Origin: a virus
Lineage: Duplodnaviria; Heunggongvirae; Uroviricota; Caudoviricetes
IMG/VR virus record: IMGVR_UViG_2657244943_000004
DNA: 19,187 nt
Strand: one strand, 5' to 3'
Under the pieces are notes generated by a model that was not told the origin of the DNA, ran no database searches, and saw only the letters and a list, made by a program, of their open reading frames with translations. Made by a program: the position numbers and the translations under genes. Of this stretch, positions 3,349-19,187 are shown in pieces; positions within the stretch are counted from its first letter, which is position 1; each line of letters begins with the position of its first letter.

Positions 3349-3514
3349 GAAAACAACCCATTATCAAATACAAGGCCCGACATGAAAACGCCAGAAAAAG
3401 GCATTTTCGGACACTTTCATGTCGGACCTTTACGGATGAAATATTAAAAAAAACAAAAAGTTATATTCGAGAAGTACCGACACGATTTTCCCTGAAAAAT
3501 TTTCATAAATAGTG
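3349..3514 (-). promoter_or_regulatory. cosB-like terminase-binding region between cosN and nu1
   Basis: Position equivalent to lambda cosB. Contains an 11-bp inverted repeat (ccgacatgaaa ... tttcatgtcgg, about 3377-3427) analogous to the inverted repeat in lambda cosB. No binding data. Confidence 0.5.
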
Positions 3515-3545
3515 AAAAACCGCGGGGTCGCCGCCCCGTAGCCTG
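3515..3545. other. cosN cohesive-end site (lambda-like)
   Basis: Minus-strand sequence GGGGCGGCGACCCCGCGGTTTTTCACTATTTATGAAAATTTT closely matches the lambda left end (GGGCGGCGACCTCGCGGGTTTTCGCTATTTATGAAAATTTTCC), then diverges. Core at plus-strand 3526-3537. Confidence 0.85.
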
Positions 3546-4096
3546 CCGGATCACCGGAAAGGACCCGCAAAACCGAGAATAAGTATCAATACTATTTGTG
3601 ATTTGAATGATGCACATCATTGAAACGCCATTCATCCATATACCAGCAGCATTCGGTGTTGCACTTCGTAACTCTGTGACTACGGTTATAAAAGCATTGG
3701 CAACTTTTGCCACCGGCAAGTCTTCAATGGATTTCCCCTGCCGGTTTTTTATTTTCGTCGATGCATAACATTGCATTTACGTCAATAGCAGCTATTGTCA
3801 TTAGTATGTTGCATCGATGCATGGGTGGTATTGGCGGTCTTCGCCGACCGGTTCTGTGTAGCTCCCTATGACCGGTTTTTTATTTCTAAGATTACAGAAG
3901 CCCTTCACTGTATGAAGGGCTTATGTAACTCTTCTTACTTAGTAATTTTCGCACCTTCCGGTATTTCCATGCGTTGAGAAAACCTCATACTATCCGACAA
4001 TAATCATCAATATACGATAAAGACATCTGACCAGATTGCAGTATTAAAAGCACTCATGCAGACTACGCCCCTCATATCATATACAAGGGGATACTG

Positions 4097-4507
4097 ATGG
4101 CTCAGGTTGCCATTTTTAAAGAAATATTTGATCAAGTGCGGAAAGATTTAAACTGTGACCGGTTTTACTCTGAACTAAAACGCCACAATGTCTCACATTA
4201 CATTTACTATTTAGCCACAGGTAATATTCACATTGTATTTGAGAGCGATAACACGGTGTTAATAAAAGGTTTCCATGATGTTATTCATGTTAGCTTTTGC
4301 AGAGACACGCGACTTATAGAAACTTACCTTCATAAGTTGAAATCAAGAGAAATCACATTTCATGAATACAGGGTAAATCTGGCTAAAGCTGGAGTTTTCC
4401 GATGGGTTACAAATATCCACGAACACAAAAGATATTACTATACCTTTGACAACTCATTATTGTTTACCGAAAGCATCCAGAACACGACTCAAATTTTTCC
4501 ACGCTAA
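4097..4507 (+). CDS. ybcV: DUF1398-family protein, YbcV-like prophage accessory protein
   Basis: 136-aa product [20 protein letters not shown]...[27 protein letters not shown] matches my memory of E. coli DLP12 YbcV. Good SD (aagggga) before the ATG. Plus strand, opposite to the late operon. Identity recalled, not searched. Confidence 0.8.
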
Positions 4508-4731
4508 ACCATAACGTCCGGTTTGATCCGCCTCAGTAGCCGGCACTCCCACACAGGAGTTACCAGTCGGTGCTGTGGCCATAGTTAATCTGGGTATACA
4601 GTAAAGATACAGCACATCTGGCATACTTTAATAAACATTAACAATATGAGATTTCAACTCATTGTTTAGGTTTTGTTTAAATTTCCACAAATACGATGCA
4701 CCAAACTTAAAAACACAACGGGAATCACACG

Positions 4732-5025
4732 ATGAAAAAAACGCTACTCACTTTCACACTGGCGCTGCTTATCTCTGGATGTGCTCAACAGACGTTTACA
4801 GTTGAAAACAAACCTACAACAGTAACACCGAAGGAAACCATCACTCATCATTTCTTCGTTTCAGGAATTGGTCAGAAGAAAACTGTCGATGCAGCCAAAA
4901 TTTGTGGTGGCGCAGATAAAGTTGTTAAAACTGAAACCCAGCAAACATTCGTAAATGGATTGCTCGGTTTTATTACTTTAGGCATTTATACTCCGCTTGA
5001 AGCTCGGGTCTATTGCTCACAATAA
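4732..5025 (+). CDS. bor: Bor lipoprotein (serum-resistance lipoprotein of lambdoid phages)
   Basis: 97 aa MKKTLLTFTLALLISGCAQQTFTV...LGIYTPLEARVYCSQ; near-identical to recalled lambda Bor, with signal peptide and lipobox (LISGC). Encoded opposite to the late genes, as in lambda. Confidence 0.92.
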   Translation: MKKTLLTFTLALLISGCAQQTFTVENKPTTVTPKETITHHFFVSGIGQKKTVDAAKICGGADKVVKTETQQTFVNGLLGFITLGIYTPLEARVYCSQ

Positions 5026-10139: not shown

Positions 10140-10337
10140 TCACTGCGGAAGGCGTCTGTAACAACCGAACTGATAATCTGCCAGACCCGCCATAACAAGC
10201 TGGGTCAGTATTAACTGGCAGCGTTCGCGTGAAAGGTAAGTATTCTGCGCAATTTCCCCAACTGTTGCCGGTTCAGTGACGCTTAATTCATTAAACACCA
10301 CTCTGGCTGTTTCTGTCATATCCTGCTGTTTTAGCAT
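10140..10337 (-). CDS. Small putative winged-helix DNA-binding protein (65 aa)
   Basis: Product contains PATVGEIAQNTYLSRERCQLILTQLVMAGLA, which looks like an HTH/winged-helix. Purine-rich region before the ATG. Between the membrane protein and MTase genes, same strand. Confidence 0.45.
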   Translation of the reverse strand: MLKQQDMTETARVVFNELSVTEPATVGEIAQNTYLSRERCQLILTQLVMAGLADYQFGCYRRLPQ

Positions 10338-10510
10338 GTCTTTTTCTCTTTATTGGTTAACGTGACATACCAATAACTCTTGTCGAAGAAGCCAGCAAGC
10401 TGAAAGACCGGTATTAATAACCACCTGCACATTTTATGTACCGAACCATTTTTCTGGCATAAAAAACCTCTCAATGGCGGGCGGTAAAAATCTTTGTTAC
10501 TCAAGAAATT

Positions 10511-11224
10511 TTAACGCACTCTGACTGTATTAATTTCAAAATCATTAATATTTCCGCTATTAAATATAACGAATTTCTTACCCCCACTCCTGTATGATTT
10601 CGATAACACCAGACGATCATCATAACGCGCAATAATGTAATACCATACATTCTCATAGTGGATCGCCTGATATTCCCTCTTAAACTGTGGTTTGTACCAA
10701 CCGGCAATAAGAGAGAATGCCCAGAAATAAATCATAAACCCAGCCATCATGAACTCAATTCGGTGATGGCGAATAAAAGACATTTCCGAAAAACATTTGA
10801 CTGAAACAAGTCTTCTTCCAGACCTGACAAAAAGCGTGATTGTAAAGGCAGCAAGAATGCAGAAAATCAGTACATCTGGCTCAACATGCTGATGAATTAC
10901 CGAAAACTCCAGAACAGGTGGAATAAAAAGCAGCAATATCGCGAGAAAAAGCCGGATAAAACTCAAATTTTGTATATTGCGCTTTTGTTTTATGCCCAAA
11001 AAGAAAACAATACCAACTCCCCATCCAATAAGGAATATAACGATAACTGTCACAGCATAAAACAAACTTCGTGCAACATCATCGACACCAGCCCCGACAA
11101 CCCACCATGGAAAGCCATAGTAAAATGAAGTACCCCATCCATAGAAATAAGCGCTTCCCCATCCTAGACAGCCCATATAAGCAACAAAAAGTGAAGAGTT
11201 TCTGAGCAGAGCACTGTCATTCAT
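10511..11224 (-). CDS. Multi-pass membrane protein of unknown function (237 aa), AT-rich accessory gene
   Basis: Several hydrophobic segments rich in aromatic/Gly residues; C-terminal soluble tail of about 60 aa. Visibly more AT-rich than flanking phage genes. First gene after the tR'-like terminator. Confidence 0.6.
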   Translation of the reverse strand: MNDSALLRNSSLFVAYMGCLGWGSAYFYGWGTSFYYGFPWWVVGAGVDDVARSLFYAVTVIVIFLIGWGVGIVFFLGIKQKRNIQNLSFIRLFLAILLLFIPPVLEFSVIHQHVEPDVLIFCILAAFTITLFVRSGRRLVSVKCFSEMSFIRHHRIEFMMAGFMIYFWAFSLIAGWYKPQFKREYQAIHYENVWYYIIARYDDRLVLSKSYRSGGKKFVIFNSGNINDFEINTVRVR

Positions 11225-11366
11225 AGTAACACCATTAACAACTCAAAAATATCAACACATATTACATAACAAATTGGATTCCATGCAGTCAAGGGGCGTC
11301 ATTGATGGAGAAAGTATTGGCACAATCGTCATCACGTTTAATGTCTATGCCATTTTTTGGGGGGAT

Positions 11367-11392
11367 AAAAAACCCGCTCGGTCGCGGGTTTT
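11367..11392 (-). terminator. tR'-like intrinsic terminator downstream of Q
   Basis: Minus-strand RNA CCCGC-GACCGA-GCGGG followed by UUUUUU; about 90 nt downstream of the Q stop and about 45 nt downstream of the candidate promoter start. Confidence 0.6.
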
Positions 11393-11442
11393 ACTAGCTT
11401 TGCCATCACGTATAAAAACGGCAAAATATCAGATTTACACGA

Positions 11443-11471
11443 AATATATGCGTTTTAATCTACTTTTGCAA
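11443..11471 (-). promoter_or_regulatory. Candidate late promoter (pR'-like), minus strand
   Basis: Minus strand TTGCAA (11471..11466), 17-nt spacer, TATATT (11448..11443), overlapping the 3' end of Q; predicted start near 11436. Sequence inference only. Confidence 0.45.
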
Positions 11472-11478
11472 TACTTTG

Positions 11479-12144
11479 CTATGAAAATGCCGCCTTTTGT
11501 TTTGAACGTGTTCTCTCCACTAACAATAAAGCTTCACTATCCAGCCGATGAAAAATGTGTTTCATTGCAACCCAGTGACCAGTAAATGTCTTGGACCAGT
11601 TTTTGGTTGTTACTCCCACCAGTAACGCCAGTTCCTGGTATTCGTAACCTTCCCCACCAAAAAGCTCAGCTTTTACCGCCTGCGCCACCAACCAGATCAA
11701 CGTCTTCAGGCGCACCAGAGTTTTTCCTGCAATTTTTCTGGTACCGGATTGAGCATTAAATTCAGTCCACGCCCACTGCGTTATCGCGATCTGATGCTCC
11801 CAGCAAATGCTACCGCTGTAACACCACAGCAGCCAGGCTTTATGATGTTCTTCAAGAGACAGAACGGCGCGTCGCCATGATGATGTCGAAAACTCAACCG
11901 GACTGACCAGGGCAATTGATGAACCTTTCGCCAGCGATTGCTTTCCCGGGATCGGTGGATTATCCAGCGTTACTATTTTTCCAGTGACCTTATCGCGGTA
12001 CCGGATTTTTTTACGTCTGTAACGCCCTGTATTGAACATGGCATTCTCCTGCCAGGCTTCAAGCTGACCTTTTGTTGCTCCACTCAAATCAGCGGTGGCG
12101 ATCGTGAGCTGCTCACGCACAAACTGTAAATACTGGTTATTCAT
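11479..12144 (-). CDS. Putative late-gene antiterminator (Q-like), 221 aa
   Basis: Called mainly by synteny: directly downstream of rusA (ATG overlaps the rusA stop as ATGA) and directly upstream of the promoter/terminator pair and lysis genes. No Cys zinc-finger as in lambda Q. The family is not confirmed. Confidence 0.55.
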   Translation of the reverse strand: MNNQYLQFVREQLTIATADLSGATKGQLEAWQENAMFNTGRYRRKKIRYRDKVTGKIVTLDNPPIPGKQSLAKGSSIALVSPVEFSTSSWRRAVLSLEEHHKAWLLWCYSGSICWEHQIAITQWAWTEFNAQSGTRKIAGKTLVRLKTLIWLVAQAVKAELFGGEGYEYQELALLVGVTTKNWSKTFTGHWVAMKHIFHRLDSEALLLVERTRSKQKAAFS

Positions 12145-13563: not shown

Positions 13564-13842
13564 TTACCTCCAGATCCGTTGCTGGAATGTGCGGGACTGA
13601 CGCGGTGGGCGTTCGGAATAAGGAAGCCTGACGTAGATTATCCAGTGACGATAATCGGGGCTGAGGGCTTTCTTAATCTCGTATCCGCGTCTGCGGTAGC
13701 AATGAATTAACCATTCAGCCTGTTCTTCAGTGCATGGAGAATGCTGGAACCAGTCCGATTTGAATGCGTGAAAACGCCGTCCGCACCTGCTGGCAAAGAC
13801 GGCAGAATCATCAGAATTGTGTAATTTGGTATCGTGCGCCAT
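13564..13842 (-). CDS. Hypothetical nin-region protein (about 92 aa from the ATG at 13842)
   Basis: Basic, Trp/Arg-rich product (MAHDTKLHNSDDSAVFASRCGRRFHAF...). The upstream part of the ORF-track ORF (to 13974) is AT-rich and probably not coding. No family recognised. Confidence 0.4.
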   Translation of the reverse strand: MAHDTKLHNSDDSAVFASRCGRRFHAFKSDWFQHSPCTEEQAEWLIHCYRRRGYEIKKALSPDYRHWIIYVRLPYSERPPRQSRTFQQRIWR

Positions 13843-14108
13843 CGGTTGTCTCTGCTGGCGCAGCAGGTGCCAGTTGTTCAGGCTGGCGTATAAAGTATAA
13901 ATAAACTGGTTCCAGTGTAAAGCCCCTACATTAATGAAATAAAAATCAAACAACAGATTGCTGGGATAAAACACAACGCTTATTATTAAAAGCGATTAGA
14001 TAAATTAAATTTTAATGTTATGCAAATTTGCCAGATCACCATAATATCTCGTTTGAAACCACCGAAATAACAACCATATCAATATTGATTATGTTAAAGC
14101 GAGTAAAT

Positions 14109-14195
14109 ATGGAAAACAACAAATCTGCACATTACGCTCCTTTTTTATCTGTGATACTTTTTGTTTTATGCTGTGTGTGGGCATTATTTTTATAA
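14109..14195 (+). CDS. Candidate small hydrophobic peptide (28 aa)
   Basis: MENNKSAHYAPFLSVILFVLCCVWALFL: polar N-terminus plus one predicted TM helix; weak SD. In AT-rich intergenic DNA, convergent with hok. Could be chance. Confidence 0.25.
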   Translation: MENNKSAHYAPFLSVILFVLCCVWALFL

Positions 14196-14226
14196 AAATA
14201 TTTACAGATAAAATAAACCCGCCGAA

Positions 14227-14457
14227 TCAAGTTAAGTGTGGGTGCATTGAGGATGCCTGACTCATCAGAGGTGGCGAGGGATTTCTCCCTCGCCTGGTCT
14301 CTAACTCCTCAGGTTCGTAAGCTGTGAAGACAGCGACCTCCGTTTGGCTGGTTCGGATTCGTACCTCACAGAGATCTTTCCTCGTTACCAGTGCCGTCAC
14401 AATGACAGTTAAACAGATGACAATCAGGGCGATTAACATCGCCTTATGCTGCTTCAT
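14227..14457 (-). CDS. hok: Hok/Gef-family type I toxin gene with C-terminal read-through extension (or pseudogene)
   Basis: From the ATG at 14457: MKQHKAMLIALIVICLTVIVTALVTRKDLCEVRIRTSQTEVAVFTAYEPEE, a near match to chromosomal Hok/Gef toxins (about 50 aa). The codon at 14302-14304, where the stop is expected, is TTA, so the frame continues 26 codons to TGA at 14227-14229. Which hok paralogue this is remains uncertain. Confidence 0.85.
   Translation of the reverse strand: MKQHKAMLIALIVICLTVIVTALVTRKDLCEVRIRTSQTEVAVFTAYEPEELETRRGRNPSPPLMSQASSMHPHLT
14273..14294 (-). other. Perfect 9-bp hairpin in the hok 3' region
   Basis: ggcgaggga-tttc-tccctcgcc; position corresponds to the 3' stem-loop of hok-family mRNAs. 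It lies inside the extended reading frame. Confidence 0.6.
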
Positions 14458-15482: not shown

Positions 15483-16181
15483 ATGAAAAAAGAACTTGAA
15501 ACCATACTGCCTGAGTTTGGTGAGGCAATTCGCCCTTACGTTTATAGTTACGTAACAGCAAACAAAAATGCCAATGCCAAGCACGTCCTGTTTATGGCTG
15601 GTTCGCCTGCTGCAGGTAAAACCGAGCTCTTAAATCGTCTTTTAGAACAACATGGCATCACAAACATTGTTCGAATTGATGCTGATGATTTTCGCTGGTG
15701 GTTCCCCTACTACAATGAAGAGAACTCTGTGGACTATCAGAGACCTGCCTCCAGAATGGTCGATTTTATCTACAAAAAAGCGCTATCTGAAGGCTATCCC
15801 ATTGTTATGGACTCTACTTTCTCCAGTATAGGTATTGCGGAGAGAAACTTTGATCTGGCCCTGAAGGCTGGTTATCAGGTAGCACTGAATTACGTCTATT
15901 TTGATCCGGCTTACGCGTGGGTTTTTGCCCAAGCCCGCTCTCGTAAGGTTCCGTTAGAGGTTCTTAAAGCGAACTTTTTCAAGAGCAGAGAGACCATTGA
16001 ACATATGCTCGCGAAATATGCAGGCCTATTTACACTCAATGTTTATCATCGACGGGAAGATCCTGAAAATGATGGTCAGTTCGTGGTCGACTATACTCCT
16101 AACGTGACCCTTGAAAACTGGACTACCTCCCATAGCTGCCCATATTCAGACGTTAGCGATCTAGCGCATTTAGGTGTATAA
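15483..16181 (+). CDS. Zeta-toxin-like P-loop kinase (AAA-like NTP-binding domain)
   Basis: Walker A GSPAAGKTE at residues 40-48, followed by VRIDADDFRWWFP, resembling the catalytic Asp region of zeta/PezT-type kinases; 232 aa. Family assignment from motifs only. Confidence 0.7.
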   Translation: MKKELETILPEFGEAIRPYVYSYVTANKNANAKHVLFMAGSPAAGKTELLNRLLEQHGITNIVRIDADDFRWWFPYYNEENSVDYQRPASRMVDFIYKKALSEGYPIVMDSTFSSIGIAERNFDLALKAGYQVALNYVYFDPAYAWVFAQARSRKVPLEVLKANFFKSRETIEHMLAKYAGLFTLNVYHRREDPENDGQFVVDYTPNVTLENWTTSHSCPYSDVSDLAHLGV

Positions 16182-16200: not shown

Positions 16201-16833
16201 GTGTATATGTCTGTTAAAACTGAAGCCATTAAACCAGTTGCTGAAATTTCGTTGTTCGATGCATTCGGACCTAACGTGAGCGAGCGGGTACAAGCCATCA
16301 ACCGGAAGGCCGCTGAGCTTTCTATGGCTGATATGGCTCAGGTAATGGACGTGACATTATCGTCTAGGAAGAAACTGGAAGTAACTGCTGAGAGCAAATA
16401 TATTCTCGATTTTCCTCAATGGCTAGAAGTCAATGCACGGAAACCTGGAGTTTCTTTTGACATGAAAGCATACACTTCTGTTGAAGTTAAAAAGATGCAT
16501 GTTCCTGACTTTCGCCAGTTCCTTCCTGTAGGTGCAAATATGTTGCATACCTATTCACCAATCGGTAAAACGGGCCTGCAAGGAATTCATGATTATTTAA
16601 TCGGTGCTGTTTCATCTAAACTTCATCACTTGCAAGGTGTCGGAGTTGATGAGGGCACGTTTAAAATACTTATCCGCTATGAAGATGCTAAAACGGGTGC
16701 TCCCCGCAATGATATAGTTGAAGCTGAGTCGACAATTAGCCCAAGTTCTTTCACTAGGCTCAAGCCCCGTGTGAAAAAACTTCGCAGAAAAGGTCATGAA
16801 ATGGCGATGCATGCACTAATTGCCAAAAAATAG
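16201..16833 (+). CDS. Hypothetical protein (210 aa), translationally coupled partner of the zeta-like kinase
   Basis: Starts 20 nt after the kinase stop with a strong SD (AAGGAG); followed by a terminator. No motif recognised; basic C-terminal tail (KPRVKKLRRKGH). Confidence 0.6.
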   Translation: MYMSVKTEAIKPVAEISLFDAFGPNVSERVQAINRKAAELSMADMAQVMDVTLSSRKKLEVTAESKYILDFPQWLEVNARKPGVSFDMKAYTSVEVKKMHVPDFRQFLPVGANMLHTYSPIGKTGLQGIHDYLIGAVSSKLHHLQGVGVDEGTFKILIRYEDAKTGAPRNDIVEAESTISPSSFTRLKPRVKKLRRKGHEMAMHALIAKK

Positions 16834-16846
16834 TAAGCCCTTAACA

Positions 16847-16876
16847 AAACCTCACTCGATTGTGAGGTTTTTGCTT
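16847..16876 (+). terminator. Rho-independent terminator ending the kinase operon
   Basis: Perfect 9-bp stem aaacctcac / gtgaggttt with 6-nt loop, followed by a T-rich tract (ttgctttct). Confidence 0.65.
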
Positions 16877-17371
16877 TCTGGCGTTCTAAAAGTCAATCAC
16901 TCCAGCTCACCAGCGCGGTTAATCTCTAAAACCGATTTAGTTTTCGGCATAGTGCCCTTCGTCGTCTCTTTCTGCGTACATCAAACAACATCTACGGCCC
17001 ATAGCGGATCACCATCAGCATGCAGCCACTGACTGGTTAAAGTCTCCTTTTCGTTTATCTTAGCAAGCTGGTACTGCGTGTGGATCCCGCCCATTTCTGC
17101 ATACTGTCGAAAATCGATGAGATGGCCAGTCGTGTTTGTTATTGGTCTATTTTTGAAAACAACTATCAATGCTATTGGTCTGTTCTTCGTTAATTAATAT
17201 GCAATCCTTTCATGACACAGGGCTACTGTTACAGCCCTGACAACCTTAGACTTCAATCGATTCAGAGATCTCTAACGCATCATCGCCCCGTTGAACTCAC
17301 AGCGATAAGTAGACGCTGGCGGCAATAACACAGAAGTATAGCGGGAATTTGAACCACATAATTTATGTTTG

Positions 17372-17824
17372 TTAGATGGCTTTGCTTCGATATTCAATTT
17401 CTAAAATCGCCTTTGTCATTGCCGCAATAGTTATAGCTTCTACCATAGTTAATTCAGGCCTGTTCAAGCTTCCGTGTCCAGCAGTAGGTAGTTTGTTGCG
17501 TAAATCATAAATATCTTTAACAACATCAATAAGATTCTTAGGTAATTTTGACATTTTTTCGAACTGTTTAAAAAAACCACCCAATGACTCATTTGCCACA
17601 TTCGGGTTTTGAGTGATTTCCTTCGCCATAGTTTCTAGAATATTAGAGGCTGCGTGCAGTGCACCCGCCGGGTCATTATTATCCAAGCAATTATTCATTC
17701 TATCTATTTGCTGAATGATATTTGGATGCAATCTCTTTAAGTAATCACTAGCCAATTCTTCATTGAAGTTTTTGACACTTTCAAAAACATCGCAATCTAA
17801 ATAAAATTTAGGATTGACTGACAT
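17372..17824 (-). CDS. Hypothetical protein (150 aa), AT-rich accessory gene
   Basis: Clean ORF in strongly AT-rich DNA; helical-looking, no recognised motif. Downstream partner of 17894..18238. Confidence 0.5.
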   Translation of the reverse strand: MSVNPKFYLDCDVFESVKNFNEELASDYLKRLHPNIIQQIDRMNNCLDNNDPAGALHAASNILETMAKEITQNPNVANESLGGFFKQFEKMSKLPKNLIDVVKDIYDLRNKLPTAGHGSLNRPELTMVEAITIAAMTKAILEIEYRSKAI

Positions 17825-17893
17825 CCATGTATATTTCCAATCATTTTCTAAATTATCTTTTTCCGCACTACGCCTGCCAGTATCCTGATCTAT

Positions 17894-18238
17894 CTAATCA
17901 ACATATTTACACATATAATCGGCGTAATAGTGTAAATATCTAAATGATATTTCTGGGCAAAAATTACTAACTGATGCAAGGCCGCCATATTCTTTTGTAG
18001 TAACTGTTGGGACTTCTTCATCACATAAATATGAGAAACTAGTTCTTTCCCAAAATTCGCCCAACTCTTTTTCTTTCCTAGTTGCCATACCAGCTATCAT
18101 ATTGATGCTTGAGAGCAAAACTACACTCTGATAGTACTGAGGACATCTGTATGAACTAGCATATGGGCATTTTGATGATGCTTTACGATTAATACGCTCT
18201 TTTTCCCACCAATTTTTATCAGGAATAATTCTTTGCAT
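17894..18238 (-). CDS. Hypothetical Cys-rich protein (114 aa), AT-rich accessory gene
   Basis: Contains CPYASSYRCPQYY and several further Cys (possible metal-binding); weak RBS. Preceded by a 460-bp AT-rich region with repeats. Confidence 0.45.
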   Translation of the reverse strand: MQRIIPDKNWWEKERINRKASSKCPYASSYRCPQYYQSVVLLSSINMIAGMATRKEKELGEFWERTSFSYLCDEEVPTVTTKEYGGLASVSNFCPEISFRYLHYYADYMCKYVD

Positions 18239-18702
18239 AATTTATGCTACTATCTCACGAGTGAATGAATGTTTAGCCTTCTGCACAGTTTATCAGTTCC
18301 GGCATACCTACTGCTACCCCACTGATTCAACTTTAAGTTATGGATTAAAGCGATTCGGTTTCGCTAGATGACACACTAGTGTTAACTTATGGATAAAAAT
18401 TTATCACTTAAAATTAACTAATGACTGTAGCGACCAAAAGTGTGCCAGAATGTTATTTTCGTCTGGCCTATTATCAATCTAATTACCCAAATTAAAGTTA
18501 CTCTCCTTCATCAGCAAAAAATAAATACGCCTGTTCACTTTCTCAAAGTGTTCCTGTGTTATTTTTAAAGTTAACAACGCCGTCTATTCGTCCAAATGTA
18601 CAACAAACATCAGACTCTGGCACAACGCTGACAATGAGAATAGTTCTAGCCCTGTGCCACAGAAATGTCAATTCACATATGTATTAATGCTCTTTAATCT
18701 CG

Positions 18703-19125
18703 TCACTTCAATAAATAGCGAACATTTCCCTGATAAAATGCCAACACTCGCTGCATTACTTCACTTTCCAGACACTCGCGACAAACCATGTTATGGCGAC
18801 TATCGTAGCGACGAATTTCTCCGTCAGGTAATGACCAGATAAGGTCCGGATCAACCATAGACGGTTTCTTCCCCTTTGCCCTCGATAGTTTTTTGCGGGC
18901 GTTTTGCCAGTCCTTACGAGCCTGTTCTGACGGGAATAACCCATAGCCAGAGTTGTATACATCGCCACTGGCAACCAGCTCCTTGGCAAGAACGCTAATC
19001 AGATATCTTGTCGCACCTGTTTTAGCTTCCAGCTGTCGTAACGTCTCGCGCCCACTCTGGCGTACGAGTGCAACAACCTGTCCCTTAATTTTTTCCCGCT
19101 CTTCTTGTGTGTAAGCGTGCAGCAA
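18703..19125 (-). CDS. Hypothetical protein, possibly DNA-binding (140 aa)
   Basis: Phage-like GC content; HTH-like segment (TGATRYLISVLAKELVASGD) and basic stretch (ARKDWQNARKKLSRAKGKK). No family recognised. Confidence 0.45.
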   Translation of the reverse strand: MLHAYTQEEREKIKGQVVALVRQSGRETLRQLEAKTGATRYLISVLAKELVASGDVYNSGYGLFPSEQARKDWQNARKKLSRAKGKKPSMVDPDLIWSLPDGEIRRYDSRHNMVCRECLESEVMQRVLAFYQGNVRYLLK

Positions 19126-19187
19126 GAACCGTATTGACGGGGATGTGTTATTCAGTCGGCAGTGCTACGCGCCAGGGGAGCAGTTCG

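Follow-up and report, generated by a model that had tools for sequence, protein, structure and literature searches.

Introduction

AbiJ (Abi-859), an abortive-infection protein of Lactococcus, is a single polypeptide of about 280 amino acids (aa) that ends in a HEPN domain with an R-N...H motif. This C-terminal HEPN domain is known as Abi_C (Pfam PF14355; 10.1101/2024.07.02.601686) and is preceded by one of several N-terminal domains, AbiJ-NTD1-5 (PMC3710099). It has been proposed that the N-terminal domain of AbiJ-type proteins engages phage components and that the HEPN RNase shuts down the cell (Anantharaman et al. 2013, PMC3710099). The N-terminal domains recur in combination with TIR, REase, PLD, and kinase effectors, and the catalytic motif of HEPN domains has been described as Rx4-6H with a polar residue after the arginine (PMC3710099). 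The mechanism of AbiJ itself has been reported as unknown (PMC13064643). Taranis, from the V. cholerae superintegron, is a recently validated single-gene defense system that also contains Abi_C (preprint 10.1101/2024.07.02.601686).

Here, a locus in a window of 19,187 nt (the whole stretch of viral DNA that was analyzed) is compared with these systems. A sequence-only reading had described the locus as a cassette of two genes behind an operator-type control region. We arrive at a different view, to which we assign a probability of about 80%: the locus is a single accessory gene on a mobile segment of 1.5 kb, the intact form of the gene is Abi-like, and the copy in the window is dead. The features of the locus are as follows:

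17134..18625, no strand: mobile low-GC segment, consisting of the gene, 238 nt downstream, and 387 nt upstream (blastn against the P2-like prophage, GC content)
17372..18238, minus strand: one gene of 288 codons, most likely a pseudogene here (single-frame translation with one internal stop, intact orthologues, dN/dS)
17894..17896, minus strand: in-frame amber codon TAG, codon 115 (codon table of 11 copies)
17774..18238, minus strand: N-terminal alpha/beta module, codons 1-155, cut by the stop (invariant C24, C32, C94, and C149)
17375..17761, minus strand: HEPN domain (AbiJ/Abi_C-like), codons ~160-288
17474..17500, minus strand: predicted catalytic motif R247-N-K-L-P-T-A-G-H255 (conservation in 58 HEPN-type members)
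18239..18317, minus strand: about 80 nt before the ATG, conserved with the 80%-identical island copy (blastn boundary, alignment)
18333..18398, no strand: direct repeats and 10-bp palindrome, real and not conserved, the palindrome at chance level

Results

One gene interrupted by an amber codon

The two minus-strand ORFs that had been described, 17372..17824 (150 aa) and 17894..18238 (114 aa), are present in the window. They share one reading frame: minus-strand positions 17372-18238 (867 nt) encode a protein of 288 aa with one internal TAG, and the start of the 150-aa ORF is the internal Met139 of this frame. In a P2-like prophage, the same DNA is annotated as a single gene of 867 nt, with 97% nucleotide identity over the gene, and an island copy with 80% identity is also one uninterrupted gene. 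The 8 split copies from lambdoid prophages were all retrieved and compared codon by codon. In the resulting table of 11 copies, codon 115 is TAG in every one of the 8 lambdoid copies, GAG (Glu) in the P2-like copies, and GAA in the island copy. Among the 25 E. coli records, 17 have both parts joined as a single 288-aa protein, and the same holds for every other genus examined. The break at codon 115 falls inside one compact, confidently modelled domain; the 114-aa piece ends within this domain, with D117, W138, and C149, all invariant, located beyond the stop. The claim of two genes was thus not upheld, and the two ORFs are halves of one gene with one stop.

In each of the 8 genomes (NZ_CP132983 and 7 others), the RefSeq/PGAP annotation has two hypothetical CDS (e.g., WP_000115768 and WP_137530583) and not a pseudogene. 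Only one near-identical protein appeared to be intact, namely P0001, which has Gln115 and represents a cluster of 141 member sequences. As an intact ancestor it would have suggested a one-step origin of the stop from CAG to TAG, but this was rejected because its metagenome contig also has TAG. The metagenome gene call reads this codon as Gln, and the intact protein is a gene-calling artefact.

A search with ARAGORN found no tRNA in the prophage, so that the element itself offers no suppressor of the amber codon. The window copy is almost certainly unable to make the full-length protein. Most likely, the window allele is a nonsense-inactivated (Glu115 to TAG), decaying pseudogene, as in all 8 lambdoid copies.

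The gene is located on a mobile segment of low GC content

A windowed GC calculation agreed with the earlier impression that the locus is more AT-rich than the surrounding phage genes. The GC content is 0.352 for 17372-18238, the most AT-rich stretch of the window, and 0.361 for 17134-18625, compared with 0.471 in the rest of the window. Horizontal acquisition of AT-rich accessory DNA, which had been suspected on these grounds, was supported by blastn: a 1.49-kb segment (17134-18625, 1,492 nt) is shared with P2-like prophages at 95.9% identity, and its flanks are unrelated. A further point raised had been whether the gene pair moves as a unit. The segment does move, but what is transferred is a single gene together with its flanks.

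Candidates for a partner gene were rejected. The convergent neighbor at 16201..16833 is unrelated to the neighbor of the P2-like copy, and the small upstream genes of three other contexts are mutually unrelated and have no remnant in the window. Because the neighbors are unrelated between contexts, the unit is one gene. The convergent neighbor (plus strand, a hypothetical gene of 210 aa) follows, after 20 nt, a gene for a zeta-toxin-family P-loop kinase at 15483..16181 (plus strand). Both genes lie in the same variable slot, between a DUF977 gene and a hokD remnant, no PADLOC system was matched by either, and the two may form a further accessory or toxin module.

The slot of the locus is found directly after the DUF977 gene of the replication module in a Qin/Rac-type lambdoid prophage. 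The accessory status of the locus was corroborated by sister lambdoid prophages, which hold other cargo at the same slot. In E. coli strain 41 (L006, 1903-5536), the cargo consists of an AAA ATPase, a 'retron system putative HNH', and a PLD-family protein, and in strain H7 (L007, 2100-5380), it consists of other hypothetical genes and IS1. Due to this differing cargo after the DUF977 gene, the site looks like a lambdoid cargo hotspot.

Several side observations were made in and around the window. A 13-nt imperfect inverted repeat (12/13; 17213-17225 TGACACAGGGCTA and 18647-18659 TAGCCCTGTGCCA) roughly brackets the cassette; its right arm is just beyond the segment common to the P2-like copy, and it could be a chance occurrence or a recombination scar. 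Beyond the window, IS66 (tnpA, tnpB, tnpC) is present between the prophage integrase and the host gene rspB (L001, 28748-31060), in a strain that carries an identical prophage. Other patches of low GC content (about 0.39-0.40) occur in the window at 3401-5000, 10201-11600, and 13801-14400. They cover DUF1398/Bor genes, a hypothetical gene of 237 aa (10511..11224), and the region near the hokD remnant, and are probably further morons. An Rfam search of 16800-19187 yielded two sub-threshold chance matches only, both outside the cassette, and neither megablast nor tblastn returned a match to phage DNA or protein in 50,697 sequenced phage records.

Intact copies reside beside defense systems

A survey of 5,426 complete E. 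coli genomes revealed the gene in 24 genomes (25 records). The 8 split records all belong to this lambdoid prophage. Intact copies were found in P2-like prophages (10 records), in an island (1 record), and on plasmids (6 records), including one conjugative plasmid and one P1-like phage-plasmid.

The intact copies have defense-system neighbors. The copy in the P2-like prophage is situated between the replication endonuclease/DinI side and the portal gene. This position is the gpA-gpQ defense hotspot as defined in PMC9122126; in P2, this hotspot carries old and tin (PMC9122126). The P2-like copy adjoins the Septu genes PtuA/PtuB (PADLOC profiles, E=1e-121 and 4e-81), and the island copy is flanked by Gabija GajA/GajB and Lamassu LmuA/LmuB. 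In a Salmonella prophage, the gene comes after a GT4-conflict glycosyltransferase gene and a DUF4145 HEPN gene; in a Pseudomonas island with an Mrr gene, it adjoins an integrase; and a TIR-fused relative is located on a conjugative element among HNH, NERD, and NucS-like genes. Placement beside validated defense systems was thus found repeatedly and in unrelated mobile elements. The copies on the conjugative and P1-like plasmids are near type I toxins and dar genes.

In V. cholerae (L023/L024; gene at L023:5001-5861), the family member is part of a run of small single-gene cassettes, which include acetyltransferases, glyoxalases, and HNH genes. Judged by its gene layout, this run looks like the superintegron. 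Integron cassettes may therefore be another vehicle of the family. The V. cholerae member is rare (3 contigs), and a pattern-based scan of species representatives gave no match in a V. cholerae genome.

The upstream repeats are not a conserved control element

The intergenic region upstream of the gene spans 464 bp (18239-18702), in line with the earlier estimate of about 460 bp. The direct repeats TTAAGTTATGGATTAAA (18333-18349) and TTAACTTATGGATAAAA (18382-18398), which match at 15 of 17 positions, and the perfect 10-bp palindrome ACACTAGTGT (18373-18382) are real. However, the operator-type control region that had been built on them did not hold up. Of the dinucleotide-shuffled versions of the intergenic region, 47% contained a perfect palindrome of at least 10 bp, which is the level of chance. 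A 15/17 direct repeat occurred in 3% of the shuffles and is nominally unusual, but the same 1.6 kb yielded 16 comparable two-copy repeat families in a repeat search. The repeat units of the 96%-identical P2-like copy have 4 substitutions in 34 nt, about threefold the regional divergence, and their mutual match is 12/17. With the island copy, homology reaches only as far as 18317 (79 nt ahead of the ATG) and does not include the repeats, and the plasmid and P1-like copies share only the coding sequence, with zero upstream homology.

The absence of the repeats from near-identical cassettes had been named as a finding that would speak against a control region. The repeats are diverged in the P2-like copy and absent from the island, plasmid, and P1-like copies. 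The upstream repeats are not conserved across these copies; repeats and palindrome showed no sign of function and are not a conserved control element. The number of promoter-like sites also equaled the chance rate (6 found versus 6.1 expected), and no terminator was predicted. The only upstream stretch conserved across the diverged copies is the segment of about 80 nt beside the start codon, and 18239..18317 is probably the 5'-UTR together with the promoter-proximal region.

Purifying selection on intact copies and decay of split copies

The lack of a coding signal in related prophages had been named as a second possible refutation. Between intact copies, dN/dS over the whole frame is 0.15-0.36. 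This shows that the intact orthologues are under purifying selection. For the window copy versus the P2-like copy, dN/dS is 0.15, which makes the stop young in comparison with the 3-4% by which these two alleles diverge.

The changes in the split clade are mostly nonsynonymous (E12K, R34Q, W63G, R123L, and V239I versus two synonymous changes), with counts too few for a statistical test of relaxed selection. W63 is invariant across the family and R34 is near-invariant; both are mutated in split copies, R34Q being found in the window copy alone. These changes are consistent with a decaying pseudogene. The divergence among the 8 split copies is 0.3-0.5%.

The C-terminal half has a HEPN fold

It had been stated that neither ORF product resembles a known protein. 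This is correct at the level of sequence, but the C-terminal half of the 288-aa protein has the HEPN fold, with four helices in an up-and-down arrangement. Among HEPN-type family members, R247, H255, and G256 are conserved in 58 of 58 sequences and N248 in 52 of 58. In the motif R-N-K-L-P-T-A-G-H, the spacer between R and H comprises 7 residues, one above the canonical Rx4-6H (PMC3710099). The match to Abi_C is weak: the P2-type protein scored 18.9 bits (E=0.0017), the island protein 13.7, and P0034 13.0, so that the E. coli copies are below the Pfam gathering score of 24 bits. PF14355 hits are on record for P0001 ('faint'), P0047, and P0057, and one relative that shares the N-terminal module reaches Abi_C at E=2e-14. 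Taken together, the C-terminal half carries the HEPN fold and a HEPN-type motif with a longer spacer, and by analogy the domain is predicted to act as an RNase.

The N-terminal module is combined with various immune effectors

The N-terminal module (N-module), a compact alpha/beta domain, spans residues 1 to about 155 and has four invariant cysteines, C24, C32, C94, and C149. A profile search of 1.84 billion representative proteins retrieved 659 representative clusters. Nearly all of them match the N-module alone, which is usually N-terminal in proteins of 150-819 aa. Fusion partners were identified by Pfam scans of 80 N-module proteins. TIR or TIR_2 domains were found in at least 20 cases, Pycsar-type TIR in 5, DpnII/MboI REase in 3, and PLD in 2; protein kinase, Schlafen/AlbA_2, SEFIR, GGDEF, TPR, and Abi_C were found once each. 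According to these domain assignments, the N-module is fused to alternative immune effectors. Three short members (P0082, P0083, and P0086) consist of the Cys-rich N-module and a single C-terminal TM helix (WWRKHLVELIVGLLVTV...), which suggests a membrane-acting effector variant.

No Pfam family was found at E<=10 for nine N-module sequences, AbiJ_NTD families included, and AbiJ-NTD1-5 were absent from the 80 N-module relatives scanned. Searches of Pfam, NCBIfam, PADLOC, and PDB revealed no relative of the N-module. The PADLOC matches of the relatives (PDC-S66, PDC-S35, PDC-S05, ThsB, and bSEFIR) are confined to the effector halves, and PDC-S66, PDC-S35, and bSEFIR were rejected as the identity of the family because the alignments cover effector domains only.

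Comparison with described systems

Like AbiJ, the intact protein is a single polypeptide with a C-terminal HEPN domain, and the family also occurs on mobile elements. The logic of the AbiJ N-terminal domains is repeated as well, as an alpha+beta N-terminal domain of about 150 aa is also found fused to TIR, REase, PLD, and kinase. In contrast to AbiJ, the E. coli proteins have Abi_C scores below the gathering cut-off, the R-H spacer has 7 residues instead of 4-6, and the N-module lies outside AbiJ-NTD1-5, has four invariant cysteines, and has no structural relative in the PDB. With Taranis, the family shares an Abi_C-type HEPN C-terminus, a variable N-terminus, the single-gene organization, and a location in integron cassettes or near integrases; the V. 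cholerae member also resides in a superintegron-like run of cassettes. The N-terminus of Taranis has been reported to be distantly related to AbiJ_NTD5, whereas the N-module has no such match, a comparison made by description only. The closest known kind is thus the AbiJ/Abi_C family together with Taranis, while the Abi_C score and the N-terminal domain place the proteins outside AbiJ in the strict sense.

RnlA/LsoA, AbiV, and HepS (Gifsy-1 prophage; PMC13043305) are other one-protein HEPN defense RNases with sensor domains. Shared features are the encoding on a prophage and an expected abortive-infection logic. However, no sequence homology exists outside the HEPN core, and the parts for sensing or regulation are not alike. 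Antitoxin partners are known for RnlA, LsoA, and AbiV, whereas the family described here has no conserved partner gene. The PADLOC candidates PDC-S32, PDC-S66, PDC-S35, and PDC-S05 are likewise single genes. The effector halves of N-module relatives match PDC-S66 (1.5e-63), PDC-S35 (6e-67), and PDC-S05 (6e-20), but these matches leave the N-module uncovered. For the intact protein itself, PADLOC-DB 2.0.0 gave no significant full-length match, only PDC-S32 with E=0.008 over 65 residues. A literature search by protein accession retrieved no citing paper.

Discussion

The intact protein follows the AbiJ plan (PMC3710099) with a different N-module, from which we infer a role in abortive infection; it is rather probable that it is a one-component system of this kind. 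The protein of 288 aa would combine the Cys-rich N-module (about 155 aa) with a HEPN domain that has an R-N-x6-H-G motif. By analogy, the N-module would sense a phage cue or hold the enzyme off. Upon infection, the HEPN domain, probably as a dimer, would cleave RNA via R247 and H255, the growth of the infected cell would stop, and the lysogen population and the prophage would be protected.

Two alternatives concern the split itself. Two separate functional genes, organized in an operon with the direct repeats and the palindrome as operator, would fit the two RefSeq CDS in all 8 genomes and the low frequency of the repeat pair in shuffles (3%). This is nevertheless very improbable, given one frame with one stop, a fused 288-aa protein in the other 17 E. 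coli copies on four other element types, and a break inside one compact, confidently modelled domain; in addition, the proposed operator is diverged in the 96% copy and absent elsewhere, with the palindrome at chance level. A sequencing or assembly error, with an intact gene in vivo, is a general possibility, but its probability is negligible, as 8 complete genomes that were sequenced independently all have this TAG and an independent metagenome contig shows it as well.

Two further alternatives concern function. The split gene could still be active and the TAG maintained, either with the HEPN domain freed by translation from Met139 or with a pair of an N-fragment and a HEPN-fragment that serves as a toxin/antitoxin-like or re-wired defense. 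The TAG allele is free of further stops and frameshifts in 8 genomes from three continents, and the P0001 cluster, whose contig has TAG, comprises 141 member sequences. In addition, the 150-aa ORF keeps the entire HEPN domain, and its HEPN part was changed only by one synonymous substitution and the conservative V239I among the 8 copies, so that residual expression from Met139 is conceivable. However, the copies diverge by only 0.3-0.5%, and therefore, the absence of further damage is expected under neutrality. No Shine-Dalgarno-like sequence is located ahead of the ATG at 17824, and the fragment would start inside the N-module, to which residues 139-155, including the invariant C149, belong; for these two reasons, the likelihood that a free HEPN fragment is translated in the window copy is rated low. 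Mutation of the invariant W63 and the near-invariant R34 in split copies and the lack of a suppressor tRNA in the prophage also argue against activity, and this explanation is improbable overall. Slightly less improbable, though still unlikely, is that the intact family is not directed against phages but is a selfish toxin or addiction module, or a factor for counter-defense or competition between elements. This would agree with the occurrence of the family on diverse mobile elements, among them conjugative and P1-like plasmids with type I toxins and dar genes nearby, and with the lack of a match in defense databases. In contrast, the N-module is fused to canonical immune effectors (TIR, Pycsar-type TIR, SEFIR, REase, PLD, and Schlafen), the neighbors are Septu, Gabija, and Lamassu, one site is the P2 gpA-gpQ hotspot (PMC9122126), and no conserved partner gene could serve as antitoxin.

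The favored reading of one nonsense-inactivated, Abi-like gene has a corrective side: the two hypothetical genes of the public annotation are one gene, and the repeats are not regulatory. It also provides a concrete case of a defense-type cassette that was exchanged between P2-like and lambdoid prophages and persists as a pseudogene. In a recent survey, persistence of pseudogenes, rather than swapping, was reported to be rare in the P2 and P4 hotspots (PMC13586616).

The intact gene points to an uncharacterized AbiJ-like family with a putative sensor domain and a HEPN RNase. Because its N-module, which has no counterpart in the domain, defense, and structure libraries searched, is recombined with the majority of the well-known immune effector domains, the intact P2-prophage allele (WP_016569949; NZ_CP025916, 3557133-3557999) is a cheap and well-motivated candidate for defense screening, and the N-module is a candidate for a new phage-sensing domain. 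A wider view is tentative, with slightly less than an even chance of being right: the N-module would define an undescribed, widespread superfamily of single-chain immune proteins, in which a sensor with a new fold is combined with swappable effectors and the E. coli P2-type alleles are active. The N-module spans about 650 clusters at 50% identity, from lineages that include Gamma- and Betaproteobacteria, Desulfobacterota, Nitrospirae, and Acidobacteria, and it possibly binds a metal or an Fe-S cluster. If this view is true, HEPN, TIR, Pycsar-type TIR, SEFIR, REase, PLD, kinase, and TM helix effectors are all wired to the N-module. The window would then show an abortive-infection gene caught during its loss.
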